NCBI GenBank assembly: GCA_038217285.1
Contig: JBBQPO010000226.1
Span: 1 to 10,209, forward strand
Direction: 5' to 3'
Origin: Chthonomonadales bacterium
Lineage (GTDB): Bacteria; Armatimonadota; Chthonomonadetes; Chthonomonadales; Chthonomonadaceae
Length of the DNA stretch: 10,209 bases
How positions within the stretch are numbered: position 1 is the stretch's first letter; each line of letters opens with the position of its first letter. Of the stretch, positions 3 through 10,094 are shown in pieces. The notes beneath the pieces are model-generated. The model did not search any database. It was not told the origin of the DNA and saw only the letters and a program-made list of their open reading frames with translations. Both the position numbers and the translations under genes were made by a program.

Positions 3-99
3 AAATTCTCCGCTGCCGCGCAGAGAATTTCCTTCGCGGACTCAAAGCAGTGAGTCCGCGAAGGCGGACTTCCCCTTTCAGAACGGCAATTCATTGCCG
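3..99. repeat. Cluster of palindromes resembling a REP/REPIN-like element
   Basis: Hairpins seen: AAATTCTC/GAGAATTT (3-10/23-30); perfect 14-bp CCTTCGCGGACTCA/TGAGTCCGCGAAGG (31-44/51-64); overlapping AGTCCGC-GAAG-GCGGACT (53-70); CGGCAAT-TC-ATTGCCG (84-99). The AGTCCGCGAAGGCGGACT unit followed by an AATTCATT-centred palindrome resembles REP units linked to Y1 (RAYT/IS200-like) transposases (recalled, not searched). Confidence 0.6.
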
Positions 100-265: not shown

Positions 266-2374
266 ATGGCGGACGATTTCAAATACGATGTTTTCCTGAG
301 TCACAACTCGAAGGACAAACCGGTCGTTCGCGCCCTTGCGAAACGATTGCGGAACAGCGGTCTGCGCGTCTGGCTGGATGAATGGATCCTCAAACCCGGC
401 GACAGCATCCCCGCAAAGATCGACGAAGGGCTGGAAGAATCCCGCCTGCTCGTTCTCTGCATGTCGGCAAACGCATTCGGCTCCGACTGGGCAACCCTGG
501 AAAGCCAGACCTTCCGTTTCCGCGACCCTCTGAACAGAGAACGCCGTTTCATCCCCCTGCGCCTGGATACCACGCCTATCAAAGGTTCTCTTGCCCAGTT
601 CCTCTATATCGACTGGCTCCCAAAAGTCCGCAAGCAGGCGTATGGAAAGCTTCTGGAAGCCTGTCTGCCGCAAATCCTCGTCGCAGGGCGCACCGATGCC
701 GGGTTCAAGGCGAGCCGCGCGAAGTTGAAAGGTTTTGCCGACGAAAACGGATTTGGCTACTTTGAGACCAGTGCCAAGGAGGGACACGGTTGTAAAGAGT
801 TGCAACAGGCGATCATGGAGACCATCGCCTGGGGCAATCTGGATAGACGGACGTCGCCGCACATCTTCAAGCGCATCAAGGAAGAGGTACTGAAACTGCG
901 GGATGAGGGACAGGTTCTCCTCACCTTCAAGGAGTTGCGTGAGATGCTCCGGCAACGGCTGCATGCAGAGCCGGAGTTTACCGATGCTATCCTGGAGACG
1001 GTGATCGGCCTGCTGGATGGCCCCGGCGCTGTGAAGGAGTTGGACTATGGGACGTATGTCCTACTCCAGCCGGAGTGGATCAACGCCTATGCCCAGGCAG
1101 TCATTCGTACCCTGCGCCAGGATCCTTCGGAGTTGGGCTGCCTGCCTCTGCGCAGCATCGCAGAAGGGAAGTTACTTTTTCAGACCGTGGATCGCGATGG
1201 CGGCATTGTAGATATGCGGCGTCTGCCGGAGACAGAGGAGCGCGTCGTCCTGCGGGAGATGGAGCGGCAACTGGAGGAGCGAGGTCTCTGCCTCAGACAG
1301 GGAGACAAGCTGGTCTTTCCCAGTCACTGCGGACGGGACCGGCCGGCGATTATAAAACATCCTTCGGTCTTCATCAGTTACGCAGTGGAGGGCTATCTCG
1401 ACGACATCTATGCCACTCTCGTGGTGAAACTGGCCGACAGTGAGGCGTTCAAACTCGATGATCTCTGGCGTGAAGCGGCGGACTTCGCGACTCTGGCGGG
1501 TGACCATCACATGGGGATTAAACTGACACGGGAGGCGGCAAACATTGGGGAGATCAGCGTCTATTTCGCGCCGGGTGTGACAACACAGGAACAGGTGATC
1601 TTCGCCAACTATATCCACGCACATCTGGAAGGCTACAGCGAAAAGGTGCAGAGACTGCGGCACTATGTCTGCCCCTATTGCAATACGCCGAAGGGCAACG
1701 CGGAAGTGCTCATGCAGAAGTTGTTGGAGAAGCGCAAGGCAGCCACGGTAGAGTGTGACAACTGCGAGAAACGCTTCGATCTCTGGGATAACCTGGAGCA
1801 ACTCTTTGCCAGCGCCGACGTGCGAGCGCAGGTAGAGGGAATGCAGGCCGAGGACGTTATTCGGCTCGACTCACGCCGTAAAGGCAAGTTATTGGCTCTA
1901 GAGGTGGCGGCACGCATCAGTAGTGCGGATCAGAAATGCTTTGAGATACCCGGCACGGAAGATGAGGGCATTGATATGGAGTTGGAGTTTACGGACGAAG
2001 AGGGGCGCGGCACCGGACAGCGGCTCTATCTGCAACTGAAGTCAGGAAACTCGCATCTGCGGACAAGGAAGACCGATGGTGCAGAGATCTTCGATATTAA
2101 AGAGCCGCTCTGGGTAGACTACTGGCTGAAGCAGAATGTACCTGTCATGCTGGTAATTGGAACGCTCGTCGGAGAAGGGGAGCGGTTCGCGGGGAAGGAC
2201 AAGTTGGAGTTTGTTGAGGTGCGCTGGATGGAGATCAGCAGTTATCTCAGACGGGAAAGCAAGAATGGCACGAAGCCTGTCAAGCAGATCGTATTCCAGG
2301 GCGAACGTCTGGATTTGAGCAGCGTACGCAAGTGGAGGAAGACGGTTTTGGACGCGCAGTCGCCATCCGCCTGA
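266..2374 (+). CDS. TIR domain + partial Roc GTPase (G4/G5 only) + COR-like region + Zn ribbon + DUF4365-like nuclease; putative defence/signalling protein, 702 aa
   Basis: N-terminus YDVFLSHNSKDK...RVWLDEW...PGDSI...IDEGLEESRLLVLCMS...SDWATLE is a TIR_2 pattern with Glu79 at the catalytic position. ILVAGRTD (aa137-144) and YFETSAKEGHG resemble small-GTPase G4/G5. VLLQPEWINAY and LVFPS resemble COR. CPYC (aa469-472) and CDNC (aa497-500) form a Zn ribbon. DEGID...LYLQLKSG...YW matches DUF4365. Purine-rich RBS AAAGGGG at 255-261. Confidence 0.88.
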   Translation: MADDFKYDVFLSHNSKDKPVVRALAKRLRNSGLRVWLDEWILKPGDSIPAKIDEGLEESRLLVLCMSANAFGSDWATLESQTFRFRDPLNRERRFIPLRLDTTPIKGSLAQFLYIDWLPKVRKQAYGKLLEACLPQILVAGRTDAGFKASRAKLKGFADENGFGYFETSAKEGHGCKELQQAIMETIAWGNLDRRTSPHIFKRIKEEVLKLRDEGQVLLTFKELREMLRQRLHAEPEFTDAILETVIGLLDGPGAVKELDYGTYVLLQPEWINAYAQAVIRTLRQDPSELGCLPLRSIAEGKLLFQTVDRDGGIVDMRRLPETEERVVLREMERQLEERGLCLRQGDKLVFPSHCGRDRPAIIKHPSVFISYAVEGYLDDIYATLVVKLADSEAFKLDDLWREAADFATLAGDHHMGIKLTREAANIGEISVYFAPGVTTQEQVIFANYIHAHLEGYSEKVQRLRHYVCPYCNTPKGNAEVLMQKLLEKRKAATVECDNCEKRFDLWDNLEQLFASADVRAQVEGMQAEDVIRLDSRRKGKLLALEVAARISSADQKCFEIPGTEDEGIDMELEFTDEEGRGTGQRLYLQLKSGNSHLRTRKTDGAEIFDIKEPLWVDYWLKQNVPVMLVIGTLVGEGERFAGKDKLEFVEVRWMEISSYLRRESKNGTKPVKQIVFQGERLDLSSVRKWRKTVLDAQSPSA

Positions 2375-2438
2375 GGAAGGCTTTGGGGGCTGGAGGGGAG
2401 CACGTGCATCCTGGATGTTGAGCGTCTCCGTTTCGTCC

Positions 2439-2468
2439 CTCCTGGTCGCAGGGGCCTGCGACCAGGAG
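2439..2468. terminator. GC-rich hairpin between convergent genes (possible terminator or mRNA stabiliser)
   Basis: CTCCTGGTCGCAGG-GG-CCTGCGACCAGGAG is a perfect inverted repeat 10 nt past the DUF1080 stop codon. There is no U-tract on either strand, so it is not a canonical intrinsic terminator. Confidence 0.45.
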
Positions 2469-2478
2469 AGAGAAGGGG

Positions 2479-3489: not shown

Positions 3490-3933
3490 TTACCGTACGT
3501 TCTGCGGCTCTACAACCGTGATGATCGCAGCATAGCGGCGAAAGCCAGTAGGGTCAAGAGTAAGGATATGCGAAATACCATGTGCCAGCATGACCGCCAC
3601 AAGGCGCGCATCGTAAACCTGGCGACCAATAACGTTGTAGGTATCGATCAGGTTTCGCCAGAGCGGATAGATAGCGGGCGTTTCCGGCAGAAGAGGAAAG
3701 ATGGCTTCTATCTTCCGAGCTTCGGCACTAGCCTGAGCGGTTGTCATACCCCAGCCATTAGCTGTAACCGGACGGCTCGCGAGTGCCTGGAACTCAACTA
3801 AGTTCTGCGCCGTGATGTAGACCGTCTCACCCTGCTGGTCTAGCAAGGTGAGTGCTGCACTTATTGTTGGGTATTGAGGATCGCCGGGGACGACGCGCCG
3901 AATAACAATGTTTGTGTCTGCCAGGCAAGCCAT
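3490..3933 (-). CDS. vapC: PIN-domain ribonuclease toxin (VapC family), 147 aa
   Basis: LADTNIVIR (D6), TAQNLVEF (E47), GRQVYDARLVAVM (D108) and ILTLD (D127) give the PIN acidic active-site pattern. The ATG directly follows the antitoxin's tandem TAG-TAG stops. Confidence 0.92.
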   Translation of the reverse strand: MACLADTNIVIRRVVPGDPQYPTISAALTLLDQQGETVYITAQNLVEFQALASRPVTANGWGMTTAQASAEARKIEAIFPLLPETPAIYPLWRNLIDTYNVIGRQVYDARLVAVMLAHGISHILTLDPTGFRRYAAIITVVEPQNVR

Positions 3934-3936
3934 CTA

Positions 3937-4194
3937 CTAGAAGCTCTCCTCATAGAGCGATTCACGATTATAGGCTTCTGGTGGCAATACAGGAACATCC
4001 TTGTTCATCTGAGCGATCTCGTCCAACGCCCGTGCGCGCTCCTCCGGGGTCGCGTGGTGTAGGTTCTGGGGTGTTTCTTCTTCCTCACCTTCGACAGGCA
4101 CAATCAGAGTGAGCCGTATATTACCGTTTATTGTCTTCAGATGATCCTGGATCTCCTTTGGAGTTCCTTCTATCACTTGTGCTTGTGTCATCAT
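3937..4194 (-). CDS. Probable cognate antitoxin (VapB-like), 85 aa
   Basis: Small acidic ORF immediately upstream of and co-oriented with vapC. The C-terminal PVLPPEAYNRESLYEE resembles the 'A..RESIY' tail of PIN-associated antitoxins. RBS GAGG precedes ATGATG. Confidence 0.8.
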   Translation of the reverse strand: MMTQAQVIEGTPKEIQDHLKTINGNIRLTLIVPVEGEEEETPQNLHHATPEERARALDEIAQMNKDVPVLPPEAYNRESLYEESF

Positions 4195-4326: not shown

Positions 4327-4506
4327 AAAAGGCCGCCGCTATTGCGCCACTCCCCGGAGGGGATGACGCATGGAAAGTGTGTTCGTTCGTCTCACGGGAG
4401 CGTTCCTCCCGATCCGTCTGTCAGGGCAAACGTGCTGCCGTCTACGGAAAACAGCGTACCGGAGGCGTTCGACTTCTGCGTGTACACATACAGATCGGAG
4501 GTTCCG

Positions 4507-6180
4507 TTATGGGTCAGGCCGTTCAGGTGCATGTTGTCCCACCACAATAGGGACATATCCGGTCGCCATCCCCGCAGGTGGAGTCACGATGAGGGCCGGA
4601 TCAAGCCGAACCAGGGAGCCGGCGCTGGGAGGAGGCATGTAGTTCTGATCGATGGTCCAGTGTGCCTGGATCTCGGCGACCAGTTTCTGCAAGCGCTGTT
4701 TCCGCGCGTCGTCCCAGTGGTACTGCTGGAACACGGGTTGATCGATGAACCGGTACCAGGCATAAGTGACCTGAGATCCGTCTGTCAGCGTGACAGTTAT
4801 GGGCGCGGTCGCCGGACCGGGGGTCTTCCATGCTGCGCTGGTAGGCGTGATATAAGTAGCCCCCTTCTTCGCCACACGGAACTTCTGGGTAGTGAGACCG
4901 GTCTCGGGCGGCACTGCACTGGAGGGGACGGGGGTCCATTTCGCGCCGTCTTGCCGGAAATATTCCGGGAACTCCCCCGCGCGGGTGATGGTGTTGGGGA
5001 ACCATTCCATCCCCCAGCGGTTGCCTGGGAAGACCTTGGTCAAACACACTGCCTCGACACCGGTGATTGGTTTTTTCGCCTGATCGTAGCGGGTGGGGCT
5101 TGTGGTCAGCGTGGGCTTCCAAGCGCCGCTGGGATGAAATGCGCCGGAGCACCGTATGCCCTCGTCACGCCAACGTTTAACGGAGTCGTACAAAGCCGAC
5201 TTGGAGAAGTAGGTCACGTCCTGCACCAGGACGGCCCGGCCTGCGTCGTCGACGGGGAAGTGCAGCCGTGGGATCCGGGAATAGACGGTGCCCTTGGCGT
5301 CCTGTGCCTCGAAGCGCGGCACCGTATTGATCTCAATTGCGCCTCCTCCGACCACGCCAGGCCGGGCATCAAGCCCACGACCGTAGAGGAAGGGATCCTT
5401 GAAGAGGGCACCGATCTTGCTCCAGGTCTGGGGGACGTAGAAGGCGATGGGGCCCTTGAAATTGGCGGCGTTAAGACAGCAGGTCCAGCTCTGGTCCCCG
5501 GTCGGTGGGTCGTCCTCCGCTGTTGGGGTAGTGAAGGGCAGGGCTAGCCAGGCATAGCCCAAAAACTGCCCCTCATGGATGTGATCGAACGGCAGTCCGT
5601 CCGGGGGGATAAGGAGGCGATTGCTGAACTGAGCGATACCCAGGCGGTTGTCCGGCAGAGTTTTATCGTTGTAGAAGAAGGACCAGCCTGGGGAACCGAC
5701 CTCGTAGTCGTAGCATTGGGGGGTGGCGTTCATGCTGAATTTCGGCCCGCTATAGCGGAAATGGTTCCCTGCCCAGTATCCCAGTCCGCCCTCTACCGTC
5801 TGAAAGACGCTATCCCAGGTGGGGCCGCGCTCCTTCCAGGTGCGTGCGAGAGTGCCCACAGGAGCGAGAGGATGGTCTTTGTTGTCCTTGTTGTCCGGTA
5901 GTATCCAACATCCGGGCAGACCGATCTGGAAACCGGCCAGAGGTTGATCGATCAGGGGCCATACGGCCGAATAGAAGCCGATCCCTGCGCTGGATGCCGC
6001 CTTGTCAGGGTTAGGTTGTGTGTTGTAGCTGATGTATCCATGCAGGCCGTCCTCATGAGCCGTGACGTCGGCAGCCTCGGGTTGGTCAGGGCATGGAGAG
6101 GGAGGACCAGTAGGGGCGGCCATCGGCAGGGCGCTGAGCAGTGGTATGAGCGAGAGGATGCGTCGAACGGCACGTGTCAT
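4507..6180 (-). CDS. Secreted hypothetical protein, Gly/Pro/aromatic-rich, 557 aa
   Basis: Long ORF with GC-rich third codon positions, signal peptide MTRAVRRILSLIPLLSALPMAA and RBS AAGAAGGA upstream. No domain recognised. Confidence 0.82.
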   Translation of the reverse strand: MTRAVRRILSLIPLLSALPMAAPTGPPSPCPDQPEAADVTAHEDGLHGYISYNTQPNPDKAASSAGIGFYSAVWPLIDQPLAGFQIGLPGCWILPDNKDNKDHPLAPVGTLARTWKERGPTWDSVFQTVEGGLGYWAGNHFRYSGPKFSMNATPQCYDYEVGSPGWSFFYNDKTLPDNRLGIAQFSNRLLIPPDGLPFDHIHEGQFLGYAWLALPFTTPTAEDDPPTGDQSWTCCLNAANFKGPIAFYVPQTWSKIGALFKDPFLYGRGLDARPGVVGGGAIEINTVPRFEAQDAKGTVYSRIPRLHFPVDDAGRAVLVQDVTYFSKSALYDSVKRWRDEGIRCSGAFHPSGAWKPTLTTSPTRYDQAKKPITGVEAVCLTKVFPGNRWGMEWFPNTITRAGEFPEYFRQDGAKWTPVPSSAVPPETGLTTQKFRVAKKGATYITPTSAAWKTPGPATAPITVTLTDGSQVTYAWYRFIDQPVFQQYHWDDARKQRLQKLVAEIQAHWTIDQNYMPPPSAGSLVRLDPALIVTPPAGMATGYVPIVVGQHAPERPDP

Positions 6181-6646
6181 GGCGGCTAGTCCTTCTTGGA
6201 GATGTGTGGGGATAGGGTGGAATGTCTGCCCGCAGGGTTTTGGCGGCTGCCAGGATCCTGTTCCCGCCGGACCGCTTTTTCAGCAGCGCTTTCAGACTCT
6301 TCAACTCTCCCTCCCACTGGATCGCGGCGAAGTCGGCCGTGGGATAGATCGCGAGGAGTGGCGACTCCCCGGAAGCCTGAGTGAGCAGTTTGCCGAGCTT
6401 GCCGTCGAAGTAGTGAGGGAACTTGAACTCGATATGGGCGGGCCACTCATCGCCGGGAGGCGTGTCCTTCTGCAACGGAGCGGCTTTCAGAGACTGACGT
6501 GTCACGCCGACAGCGAAATCCAGCCCCTGCGTGTTGAAGCGCGTGTTCCCATAGGCGTCCCCAGGGTCCCCTCCGGGGGCAGCGTGGACCGCAGCGGTCA
6601 ATAAAGCCAGTATGCAGATCATCCCCAGCACCTTTGGCCTTTCCAT
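6086..6646 (-). CDS. Secreted hypothetical protein, probably 3'-truncated near 6200 (possible pseudogene)
   Basis: Likely start MERPKVLGMICILALLTAAVHA (ATG 6646, GGGAGG RBS upstream, signal peptide). Sequence is globular-looking up to ...RADIPPYP, then a Ser/Arg/Thr/His-rich tail overlaps the next gene by 95 bp. Confidence 0.6.
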   Translation of the reverse strand: MERPKVLGMICILALLTAAVHAAPGGDPGDAYGNTRFNTQGLDFAVGVTRQSLKAAPLQKDTPPGDEWPAHIEFKFPHYFDGKLGKLLTQASGESPLLAIYPTADFAAIQWEGELKSLKALLKKRSGGNRILAAAKTLRADIPPYPHTSPRRTSRHDTCRSTHPLAHTTAQRPADGRPYWSSLSMP

Positions 6647-6827
6647 CGTCTTTGTTACCTCCCGTTTCTTGCGTTCCATGATCTCTTGCTCCTTGGGATA
6701 TATTCGCTGGCTTTCCGCTGTCTCCTGCTTGACATTGCAGCAAGGGTGCGACTACGGGTGAAGAAACGACAAAAAGTCATTGTGGAATCGACCGCAAGTT
6801 TTGGGGTCAGTAGAATCATGTCTGATC

Positions 6828-6962: not shown

Positions 6963-7955
6963 ATGCCTAACATCAACGTTTTGATCCTCATCCACGGAGT
7001 AGTTGAAGAGGCTGTGCCAAGCAACCATGTGCATCAATATGATGCGCTATGGCAGGCGCTGCAGGCTAAAAATCCAGCCCTTACGGGGCGGATGGATGCC
7101 GTTATCCGTGTCGAGTGGGGGCACGCGCCCTTTCCGATTTCTGCGGCGCTTCGGCCCGATGAGAGATTAACGGAAGCCGAGAACACTGTTCTGGATGCCG
7201 TGAGTTACGATAAGATCAAAGCCCATCCGACAGCAGACGATTCCTTCCTGAACTTCCCGCCCGACTTTCTCCAGCGATCGGTCGTACGCCCGCTTACGCG
7301 ACCGATCAAAGAAACCGTCCTGACGCTCGGGATCAGCGACAGTTTCTACTACTGCACTGCGGATGGCGAGCGGGCCGTGCGTGACAATGTCTACTCCCAG
7401 GTGCTGGCAGGATTGGCGCCTTACAAGGCGGCAGACAAGGTCGCTATCCATCTCATCGGCCATAGCCAGGGAGCTACCGTCGGTTTTGACTTCCTTTATG
7501 GCTTGTTCGCCCCTGATTCCGCATATCCGCCCGACGGCGTGCCTGGCTTTGTCAAGGACAACCAGAGTTCTCCCGATAGCGTGCAAGCCTACCTCGACTG
7601 GCGAACCCGCGCACAGCAAGGGAAGCTTGTGCTGGGCTCCAAATCCAGTTTTGGCTGCCAGATCGGCTTGATGATGTTGCGCAAGCAAAAACTGGTGGAT
7701 AAACTGTACAACAAGGAACGCCTGGATCCGACAGTCATTGGCGTTCCGAGGACCGGTTCCGCCAAGTGGAAGATATTCTTCGATACCGACGACATTCTCG
7801 GATTTCCGGCCCGCCGCCTCTTTGACACTGTGGGCTCCATTCGGGAATTTGAAGTCGATTCCGACTGGAATCCGATAACGTCGCATACCGCCTACTGGAC
7901 GACCGACCAGGTTCAGACGGAGATCACGACACTGATCACGCAGAATCTGATCTAA
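6963..7955 (+). CDS. Alpha/beta-hydrolase-fold (lipase/esterase-like) protein, 330 aa
   Basis: GGAGG at 6953-6957 favours ATG 6963 over the track's 6900. LILIHG is an oxyanion-type motif, IHLIGHSQGA is the nucleophile elbow (7458-7472), DTDDILGFP supplies the acid and SHTAYW the His, giving Ser-Asp-His order. No signal peptide. Confidence 0.8.
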   Translation: MPNINVLILIHGVVEEAVPSNHVHQYDALWQALQAKNPALTGRMDAVIRVEWGHAPFPISAALRPDERLTEAENTVLDAVSYDKIKAHPTADDSFLNFPPDFLQRSVVRPLTRPIKETVLTLGISDSFYYCTADGERAVRDNVYSQVLAGLAPYKAADKVAIHLIGHSQGATVGFDFLYGLFAPDSAYPPDGVPGFVKDNQSSPDSVQAYLDWRTRAQQGKLVLGSKSSFGCQIGLMMLRKQKLVDKLYNKERLDPTVIGVPRTGSAKWKIFFDTDDILGFPARRLFDTVGSIREFEVDSDWNPITSHTAYWTTDQVQTEITTLITQNLI

Positions 7956-9224: not shown

Positions 9225-9475
9225 TTTTCGCTCCTCGAAATGCGTTTTTTACGTTGGATTTCCGACTGCCAATCCGTCTGATCCCCAGAGGTCCCTGAGA
9301 GGAAGGCGACGGTCGTTCCGCGACGCCCCGCACGGCGCGGATGTTATCAGGGGGAGAAGAGCCTGCGTTTCCCGCTGACGATTCTGGTATTCAGTTTACC
9401 CGCTTTAGACAGAAACCTCATGGCTGCCAACCGCTTGCCCAGATCGTCGGAGAAGCAGTCCATGATAACCTCCAT

Positions 9476-9557
9476 AGACCAGACAGGCATAAAAACAGAC
9501 CAGGCAGGCATAAATATTGATTTGTAATGCCATAAATATTGATTTGTAATGCCATAA
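9476..9557 (+). repeat. Two adjoining tandem duplications (21-bp and 22-bp periods)
   Basis: AGACCAGRCAGGCATAAA occurs at 9476-9493 and 9497-9514. CATAAATATTGATTTGTAATGC occurs exactly at 9509-9530 and 9531-9552, plus partial CATAA at 9553-9557. Confidence 0.9.
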
Positions 9558-9559
9558 GT

Positions 9560-9575
9560 TGGCACGATTTGTGCA
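9560..9575 (+). promoter_or_regulatory. Sigma54 (-24/-12) promoter
   Basis: TGGCACG-ATTT-GTGCA has exact GG-N10-GC spacing and one mismatch to TGGCACG-N4-TTGCW. It points toward the secreted gene at 9714. Confidence 0.75.
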
Positions 9576-9713
9576 TATTCCGTATCTTGGTACAACTTGC
9601 ATACTTGCTTGCTCCAGAGTTCAAGGTAGGCGGTTCTAGGGTCTGGTACGCAGCATCTTTTCAGTATTAAGAATGCCTGCAGCCAAGGGCAGCGTTCATG
9701 GAGGTTCTTAAAC

Positions 9714-10094
9714 ATGCAACAGAGTCGTTTTCTTTCCCTTCTCGGTGCAACGGCACTGACCGTCGCTGGCACCCTGTCTCTCGGCAGCCGCGCGAACGCC
9801 CAGCTTACCCTGACCCCGGCAGGAGTTACGGCCGGTTTCTCCCTCTCGACCTTCGCCGATAACTTTCCGTCCGATGGCAGCATCGGGCCGCTTGGAATCG
9901 CGTTCAATGGCGGGCATGTGATCGTCAGTGATTACCCCGGCAACGTTCGCGTATTTCCGACGGATACAGACGGGCAACACGCGAACCTGGTCGCGGTTGG
10001 ACAGAACTACGGTGCGCACAACGCCGTCGGTCTGGCGACAGTTGGCAGCAACATCTATATGACCCAGCAGATTATTGACCTTCAGGTGATCTAG
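9714..10094 (+). pseudogene. N-terminal part of a secreted beta-rich (NHL/propeller-like, possibly PEP-CTERM-type) protein, probably interrupted near 10073
   Basis: GGAGG RBS (9700-9704), signal peptide ending ANA|Q, blade-like motifs GPLGIAF and AVGLATVGSNIYMTQQ. The ORF then ends abruptly in IIDLQVI*, where the DNA becomes more AT-rich. Confidence 0.65.

Follow-up and report, generated by a model that had tools for sequence, protein, structure and literature searches.

A TIR-COR-DREN protein gene from a Chthonomonadales bacterium is an in-frame deletion allele of a larger ROCO-type, putatively dual-effector family

Can a protein that joins a TIR domain to a nuclease domain through a COR-like core serve as a defence system by itself, or is it what is left of a larger machine? 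The question is raised by an intact open reading frame (ORF) for a protein of 702 amino acids (aa) plus stop, here called P0001, at nucleotides (nt) 266-2374 of a Chthonomonadales contig (JBBQPO010000226.1). We analyzed this contig as one stretch of DNA, the window, which is a whole 10,209-bp metagenome contig (contig C226) of a genome bin of 6.2 Mb in 459 contigs with 95% completeness. An earlier note on the sequence had described P0001 as a candidate stand-alone anti-phage protein in which COR-driven assembly could activate NAD+ cleavage and DNA cleavage or binding together. We find here an in-frame deletion allele, best explained by a single event, that has lost about 1.2 kb (~404 codons). 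P0001 is not a minimal stand-alone system by design; it derives by internal deletion from a protein with a WD40 sensor, and both this sensor and the two thirds of Roc that bind the nucleotide are gone. The ORF start at nt 266 is right, because the N terminus of P0001 matches its relatives from the first residue.

The closest relative, P0002, has 1105 aa and is 88% identical to P0001 over the retained parts. Its residues 1-135 map to nt 266-670 of the window, and its residues 540-1103 map to nt 668-2359. In an alignment of P0001 with nine relatives, one block of about 400 to 450 columns is missing from P0001, and this block holds the whole WD40 region as well as the Roc motifs GDTSSGKT (G1) and DFGGQ (G3). 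After the missing block the P0001 sequence resumes at "LVAGRxD" (G4-like), which is followed by "ETSAK" (G5). A complete Roc with G1 to G5, as expected of a ROCO protein, is thus absent from P0001 but present in its relatives, as in P0002 at residues 431-549 (Pfam, E 1e-19). The model of full-length P0002, with a predicted local distance difference test (pLDDT) value of 85.8 and a predicted template-modelling (pTM) score of 0.82, has a propeller at residues 154-400 and a G domain/Roc at residues 424-592. No counterpart of P0002 residues 136-539 was found elsewhere in the genome bin, only generic WD40 proteins (<=39% identity) and one distant GTPase. Of the Roc GTPase, P0001 retains beta5-alpha4-beta6-alpha5 and nothing more.

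The window was assembled at low depth (~6x word depth) from a metagenome as a contig of 10.2 kb, and WD40 repeats, which form a 126-nt tandem array in one family locus (L030), can collapse in assemblies, so the junction could have been made by assembly or binning from two parts of a normal full-length gene. However, in sequencing run X1, the probable source of the contig, a 1,471-nt Logan contig from a second assembler covers nt 578-1100 with 0 differences and no loose ends; this contig comes from the same data, so the bridging evidence is not independent and is limited to the probable source sample. On the right, the break falls within Roc sequence that contains no repeats, and the reading frame is kept exactly across the join. 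The bases shared at the breakpoints, as inferred from the protein alignment, number at most a few, too short for a k-mer join. We consider an artefact very improbable. Runs X2 and X3, from another study, yielded a 401-nt contig that matches nt 319-671 with 17 differences (~95% identity) and then departs; beyond nt 671 it translates to LTSEKSLTSI, which is the linker after "EACLP" in full-length P0002. This departure places the left breakpoint at codon 135/136 and shows that a close relative of full length occurs in nature. Runs X2 to X7 contain only small shares of the window.

We looked for the junction in other sequences. Among 135 homologues with both TIR and C-terminal matches (of 267 compared), none has it, with the smallest insert being 130 aa and the median 445 aa. 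None of the best 150 representatives aligns across the junction as one stretch, and the junction peptide had 0 matches in a metagenome contig collection. On clustering, P0001 stands alone as a singleton from a single contig.

The protein that remains keeps both effector domains, COR and the zinc ribbon, and is without the whole sensor and Roc G1 to G3 (P-loop, switch I, and switch II) (Table 1). At the N terminus, Pfam TIR_2 covers residues 9-129 (E 5.3e-27), and in structure comparison with VIA, model residues 4-136 match solved TIR domains with Z scores of 16-19 (maximum, 18.8), including 16-17 for SPARTA TIR-APAZ and AbTir. The AbTir NADase also aligns by sequence (E 1.2e-14), with its W-x3-E matched to W75-x3-E79, and E79 is conserved in 72 of the 80 family sequences having a residue at that column. 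At the C terminus, Pfam DUF4365 (PF14280) covers residues 549-691 (E 2.4e-15; 57.2 bits against a cutoff of 24.3), and model residues 534-702 match the DREN domain of XauSPARDA (VIA, Z 14.8). D566-x-G-I-D570 and Q590-x-K592 are present and align with GxD...QxK of the SPARDA DREN chain. D570, Q590, and K592 correspond to the catalytic residues D41, Q60, and K62 of NbaSPARDA (PMC12205087) and are kept in 93/94, 86/96, and 81/95 family sequences, respectively. The zinc ribbon has the spacing C469-x2-C472, 24 residues, C497-x2-C500, and each of its cysteines is conserved across the family (98/100, 93/98, 96/97, and 94/94 sequences, respectively).

The middle of the protein is less easily read. Residues 136-191 make up the final third of a Roc GTPase, a point overlooked in the earlier note; a Ras profile (Pfam) matches residues 117-187 with only its positions 93-160 of 162, in a weak match (E 0.014) that falls short of the cutoff. 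For the region that follows, Pfam COR gave no match at E <= 1 in P0001 and likewise none in P0002, P0186, and P0046, and profile searches of PDB sequences with family alignments returned only WD40 proteins or Rab GTPases and no COR. The COR assignment comes from fold comparison of a predicted model. The AlphaFold2 model, built on 111 family sequences, has a pLDDT of 92.3 and a pTM of 0.77, and its confidence drops only between residues 131 and 150 (pLDDT 62-67). Foldseek matched it to the COR of Chlorobium tepidum Roco (3dpt_A, E 1.7e-10, template-modelling score 0.66; 3dpu, E 4.3e-11) and then to LRRK1 and LRRK2. VIA aligned model residues 198-517 with the 3dpt COR (Z 15.8; root mean square deviation, 4.3; 281 aligned residues), and this alignment extends through the zinc ribbon to residue 517. 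By its fold match to the C. tepidum COR, P0001 thus has the COR directly after Roc that characterizes ROCO proteins.

The earlier note had seen most of these parts in the letters alone, namely, a TIR domain with an intact W-x3-E (Glu79), a COR-like core, CxxC-x24-CxxC, and a C-terminal D-x-G-I-D...Q-x-K domain likened to DUF4365, and it had named Pfam searches and an AlphaFold model as checks. The TIR domain, the cysteines, and the nuclease domain are present as described, as are the catalytic residues that the note named. The COR-like core is borne out by fold but not by Pfam.

Table 1. Positions in the window of the P0001 gene, its parts, and the adjoining inverted repeat
Feature	Residues of P0001	Position (nt)	Strand	Basis and details
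Whole ORF		266..2374	+	In-frame deletion allele of a TIR-WD40-Roc-COR-zinc ribbon-DREN family protein; 88% identical to the 1105-aa P0002 across both retained parts
TIR domain	1-135	266..670	+	Pfam TIR_2, fold, AbTir alignment; Glu79 at nt 500-502
Deletion junction	codons L134-P135/Q136	665..673	+	Alignment and DNA; ~404 codons (P0002 aa 136-539) missing
Roc GTPase remnant	136-191	671..838	+	Ras profile, models; beta5-alpha4-beta6-alpha5, G4-like AGRTD, G5 ETSAK; G1, G2, and G3 absent
COR domain	about 192-464	839..1657	+	Fold comparison (Foldseek, VIA)
Four-Cys zinc ribbon	465-505	1658..1780	+	Sequence, Cys conservation
Helical connector	506-553	1781..1924	+	DSSP of model; includes long helix 517-553
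DUF4365/DREN-type PD-(D/E)xK nuclease domain	554-702	1925..2371	+	Pfam, fold, motif; D570 at nt 1973-1975, Q590 at nt 2033-2035, K592 at nt 2039-2041
Inverted repeat between the P0001 gene and the convergent gene		2436..2471		Repeat search; 17-nt arms, 2-nt loop

We used P0001 residues 130-702 as a query and obtained 933 homologues, mostly of ~1140 aa, with Pfam TIR, WD40, Roc/Ras, and DUF4365 matches. The full-length proteins, of about 1,100 to 1,450 aa, have an N-terminal TIR domain, a WD40 propeller, Roc, COR, a four-Cys zinc ribbon, a long helix, and a C-terminal DREN domain. The family was found in 0 of 4 genomes of the same genus and in 2 of 40 relatives, one of which has many copies. 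At 60 to 78% identity it occurs in genomes labelled Acidobacteriota, Verrucomicrobiota, Planctomycetota, Chthonomonadales, Gallionella, Nitrotoga, Desulfuromonadales, Gemmatimonadales, and Hymenobacteraceae, a phylum span of Acidobacteriota, Verrucomicrobiota, Planctomycetota, Proteobacteria, Gemmatimonadota, and Bacteroidota. Such identity across phyla points to horizontal spread and to a patchy, accessory, and mobile family. No match was found among 50,697 phage records, and plasmid records gave only distant (30%) Roc-COR-zinc ribbon modules in cyanobacterial megaplasmid proteins.

Members of the family are often broken. We classed 66 loci in species-representative genomes against a full-length reference; 17 were colinear and intact, 4 were intact with more WD40 repeats (1270 to 1447 aa), and 3 were intact with fewer (910 to 1024 aa), while 19 were cut by contig ends and 1 was masked. 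Contig ends spare 47 loci; of these, 18 are interrupted by frameshifts or in-frame stops, and some of the frameshifts may be assembly errors of genome bins. Another 4 are remnants or deletions that show no frameshift. One-off internal deletions with different breakpoints, each a cluster of one sequence, are seen in L056 (6376-8491), where TIR and three WD40 repeats are joined to mid-COR with an added frameshift before the nuclease domain; in P0196, where TIR and one WD40 repeat are joined to DREN; in P0243, with a deletion running into DREN; and in P0209, where TIR and WD40 are joined to DREN without Roc, COR, and zinc ribbon. Relatives without WD40 but with an intact Roc also exist (P0186). 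The WD40 array of L030 has 12.4 copies at 70 to 76% identity by Tandem Repeats Finder, which found no DNA-level WD40 array in L011. Short proteins that begin with the Roc tail (P0161, P0173, P0039, and others) were considered as a GTPase-less subfamily and set aside, as they start at internal Met residues of Roc and look like ORF fragments.

By analogy with NLR-like defence proteins encoded by single genes, the variable WD40 propeller of the full-length protein would sense a trigger, and Roc-COR would act as a GTP-dependent switch and assembly module. Assembly would gather the TIR domains, which depend on TIR-TIR contacts for NAD+ cleavage, and also the DREN domains, which would be inactive as monomers and active as tetramers as in SPARDA, and the outcome would be abortive infection or growth arrest. 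The published text on NbaSPARDA describes the isolated DREN as monomeric and inactive and its activation by tetramerization in a filament (PMC12205087). The co-activation of TIR and DUF4365 by COR in the earlier note is accordingly a reasonable idea for the family, as both effectors depend on oligomerization elsewhere, but it probably does not carry over to P0001, which has lost the sensor and the GTPase core. With the sensor and Roc G1 to G3 lost, P0001 cannot bind GTP or sense a trigger, and it is most likely an untriggerable, silent remnant.

Our preferred reading, which we hold to be moderately probable, is that P0001 is a recently disabled, untriggerable copy of a ROCO-type, NLR-like dual-effector protein. 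The silence of the truncated allele is what we infer from its missing parts, and the frequent breakage in the family (18 frameshift or stop loci and 4 remnant loci among 47) supports the reading. What weighs against it is the good state of the retained parts. P0001 has an intact ORF with all catalytic and Cys residues kept and a confident model. It has only 2 private changes at 257 columns with at least 95% conservation, which ranks it 52nd of 79 sequences. Amino acid changes since the split number 22 to 24 specific to P0001 against 25 to 26 specific to P0002 (p 0.77 to 0.89), and the TIR part differs from the contig of the full-length relative by 12 synonymous and 4 nonsynonymous changes. Moreover, the existence of WD40-less relatives with an intact Roc means that the sensor is not always required. 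Retained parts without decay imply either that the deletion is recent or that the shortened protein is still under selection, and the absence of decay fits a selected, working protein as well as a very recent deletion. The deletion is probably recent enough that no other damage has accumulated.

If P0001 does work, it would be a stand-alone, GTPase-less TIR-COR-DREN effector for which COR and the zinc ribbon suffice for assembly, with control through expression level, a partner, or direct sensing of nucleic acids by DREN or the zinc ribbon. Besides the intact 702-aa ORF with its kept residues, the lack of excess amino acid change relative to the full-length sister, the model that is confident outside residues 131-150, and relatives such as P0186, a lead in this direction comes from ESM Atlas clusters of 63 to 73 members and 482 to 507 aa with TIR, COR-A, and COR-B, which are too short for Roc (scores 0.86 to 0.87) and may be fragments of Roc-COR-TIR proteins. 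Yet 0 of the 135 homologues share the architecture, and P0001 is a single sequence on one contig with a junction not found elsewhere. The retained 56-aa G-domain fragment (beta5 to alpha5) has the look of something left behind, not of a designed linker, and lies in the least confident region of the model. One-off deletions and frameshifts abound in the family, and an abortive-infection effector without a sensor would be expected to be toxic or inert. A working stand-alone protein is a serious rival reading, though less likely than a disabled one. More doubtful still is the combined claim that the full-length family is a one-gene ROCO-type immune receptor firing a TIR NADase and a DREN nuclease together and that P0001 still works as a TIR-COR-DREN module.

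A defence role of the family as a whole is suggested by its two effector types, its NLR-like order, its patchy mobile spread, its variable sensor repeats, and its frequent gene decay. We compared the neighbourhoods of 18 homologue loci (274 ORFs) with nine random regions (141 ORFs), counting PADLOC matches at E <= 1e-8. The earlier note had named enrichment of homologues near defence genes as a check, and this crude test did not show it: matches were found at 8/18 homologue loci against 7 to 8 of 9 random regions of one genome, and strong matches were found at 4/18 loci against 4/9 regions. In the window itself, none of the 11 ORFs neighbouring the P0001 gene has a PADLOC match. These counts run against a defence role, but we do not take the neighbourhood result as evidence against it, because the control consisted of random regions of the window's own genome only and the match criterion was loose and unspecific. 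One of the control regions, L092 (G000:C1:30357-50356), is a large defence island with PDC-S05, a type III methyltransferase, a DrmD-like helicase, PDC-S01, and a mad3-like protein. The clearest defence-island context among the loci is that of L031 (3359-11746, Terrimicrobiaceae), where SoFic and a complete SIR2-HerA pair (E 5e-104 and 3e-142) stand immediately upstream of a family gene of full length. Another family locus, L018, lies with PD-Lambda-2_B, PDC-M41A/B, and PDC-S07, and L036 is near a retron-type reverse transcriptase.

The family may alternatively consist of ROCO signalling or regulated-cell-death proteins that act in kin conflict, development, or stress rather than against phages, with P0001 as a remnant of one. 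This would agree with the neighbourhood test, in which enrichment for defence genes was not seen against the one-genome control, with the lack of a match in the phage records, and with the hosts of the family, most of which are Acidobacteriota, Verrucomicrobiota, and Planctomycetota from soil and sediment; Kaur et al. (PMC7159879) tie such NTPase systems to multicellular or social bacteria. However, both effector types are known from defence systems, namely, DREN from SPARDA and TIR from the Thoeris, pAgo-associated, and retron models that match the TIR part, and some loci stand in clear defence islands, such as L031 after SIR2-HerA and SoFic and L018 with PD-Lambda-2 and PDC-M41. The patchy distribution across phyla, the varying number of sensor repeats (forms of 910 to 1447 aa), and the high rate of pseudogenization also speak for defence, and we regard a role outside anti-phage defence as quite improbable.

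As the earlier note had suspected, P0001 matches no named system. No full-length PADLOC or NCBIfam model matches it, and all matches are at the level of domains: the best PADLOC match, PDC-S66, covers only residues 5-82, and NCBIfam Retron_TIR gives 55.6 bits against a cutoff of 600. It is not a Thoeris protein, as the ThsB models match the TIR core only (E 1e-8 or weaker), and no ThsA-like neighbour was found in the window. Nor is it part of a SPARDA or other short pAgo system; the PADLOC Aga_REase model matches only residues 558-631. With SPARDA, a short pAgo with DREN-APAZ, P0001 shares the C-terminal DREN-type PD-(D/E)xK nuclease and its D...QxK triad, but it has no APAZ domain, Argonaute gene, or guide-nucleic-acid sensor, and assembly would need Roc-COR. 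The best sequence matches of its TIR domain are the NADases of the AbTir, BtTir, and SPARTA type, with fold Z scores of 16-17 and an aligned W-x3-E, while P0001 differs from them in having the TIR domain fused to a ROCO scaffold; its TIR activity, if any, could deplete NAD+ or make a cADPR-type signal.

Proteins with an effector, an NTPase switch, and a repeat sensor in one chain are familiar from STAND/NLR-like single-gene defence proteins, such as Avs and bNACHT, and from fungal WD40 NLRs. The family resembles these in its varying repeat number and, in some members, in tandem and mutually similar WD40 repeats; it differs in its switch, which is a Ras-like Roc GTPase with COR rather than a STAND ATPase, and in its two effectors at opposite ends. 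The likeness to bacterial Roco (C. tepidum Roco, LRR-Roc-COR; 3dpu, 3dpt, and 6hlu) lies in the COR fold (Foldseek E 1.7e-10 to 4.3e-11; VIA Z 15.0 to 15.8) and, in full-length relatives, in Roc directly before COR. Unlike bacterial Roco, P0001 has no Roc G1 to G3, the family has a WD40 propeller before Roc instead of leucine-rich repeats (LRRs), an N-terminal TIR domain, and a zinc ribbon and DREN after COR, and its COR is undetected by Pfam COR models. In the text of Kaur et al. (eLife 2021; PMC8195603), prokaryotic counter-invader proteins with LRRs, an AP-GTPase (Roc), COR, and a variable effector were predicted computationally, with TIR among at least 24 effector domains and with several paralogues possible per genome; AP-GTPase-COR is also mentioned with vWA systems by Kaur et al. 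(eLife 2020; PMC7159879). The family agrees with the description in PMC8195603 in joining a repeat sensor, Roc-COR, and an effector in a single polypeptide, with TIR among the effectors. Those proteins are described there with N-terminal LRRs and a C-terminal effector, whereas the family has WD40, an N-terminal TIR with a C-terminal DUF4365, and a zinc ribbon. The WD40 sensor, the pairing of TIR and DUF4365, and the zinc ribbon are not mentioned in the passages of PMC8195603 that we consulted, and its source-data tables may list the architecture. Our literature search found no paper describing or testing the TIR-WD40-Roc-COR-zinc ribbon-DREN architecture or measuring the activity of any member. 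We regard the family of P0001 as a variant of the ROCO conflict proteins that were predicted for bacteria in 2021.

Related pieces were seen in other places. Plasmid p057_H of Nostoc sp. C057 (L098 2693-8757) encodes a 1,443-aa annotated metallophosphoesterase with a Roc-tail, COR, and zinc ribbon-like module (30% identity to residues 126-527), followed on this conjugative plasmid by a NACHT-domain gene; the module suggests that effectors may be exchanged on a Roc-COR-zinc ribbon scaffold. At L012, a separate 130-aa TIR-only ORF (6967-7359, + strand; PDC-S66, E 3e-17) precedes an intact family gene of full length by ~1 kb and may be a remnant of a second copy. The genome of the window itself has an LRR-Roc paralogue of the classical bacterial Roco kind (G000:C216; L083 1105-2013, + strand), whose P-loop and DFGGQ motif are intact but which the contig end truncates, and a second DUF4365 match (G000:C34:5663-6131, - strand) that is split across two reading frames of 159 and 75 aa and is probably a broken stand-alone DREN-type gene.

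Around the P0001 gene, the window encodes a 3-keto-disaccharide hydrolase, a PIN/VapC toxin with a small upstream ORF, and a TIM-barrel enzyme, together with several ORFs without a family match. The region 2375-2480, around the inverted repeat that follows the gene, folds at -53 kcal/mol (z -3.0); the repeat could act as a two-way terminator for the P0001 gene and the convergent gene, but it was not called in a consensus terminator scan. Scanning nt 1-2600 for promoters gave none. Read directly from the sequence, a 13-nt perfect inverted repeat (CCTTCGCGGACTC ... GAGTCCGCGAAGG) lies at window positions 31-67, ~200 nt upstream of the P0001 start. At 3490-4194 (- strand), a 147-aa PIN protein (PF01850, E 2.9e-10; VapC family TIGR00028, E 2.4e-9) directly follows an 85-aa ORF without a family match, and the two are likely a VapBC-type toxin-antitoxin pair. 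The most GC-rich part of the window (4342-6679) holds long ORFs overlapping on opposite strands, 4342-5547 (+, 401 aa), 4507-6180 (-, 557 aa), and 6086-6679 (-, 197 aa), none with a match in Pfam, NCBIfam, PADLOC, or PHROGs. Inside the ORF 9347-9907 (- strand), a perfect 22-nt tandem duplication (9509-9530 and 9531-9552) adjoins an 18-nt near-repeat (9476-9493 and 9497-9514) in AT-rich sequence; these repeats could be operator-like or a product of slippage.

The "minimal dual-effector" protein P0001 is a deletion product, which makes the full-length relative the proper starting point and P0001 a natural comparison, and the interest lies in the family more than in this copy itself. If P0001 did prove to work as a TIR-COR-DREN module, COR and the zinc ribbon would be a self-sufficient assembly platform. 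Natural variants within the family, some having the WD40 sensor and some lacking it, and P0001 lacking the GTPase core, can help to dissect the mechanism. For ROCO proteins, of which human LRRK2 is the best known, the ancestral role is not settled; a bacterial ROCO family that is large, mobile, and equipped with two immune-type effectors would make an immune origin of ROCO testable with a single gene.

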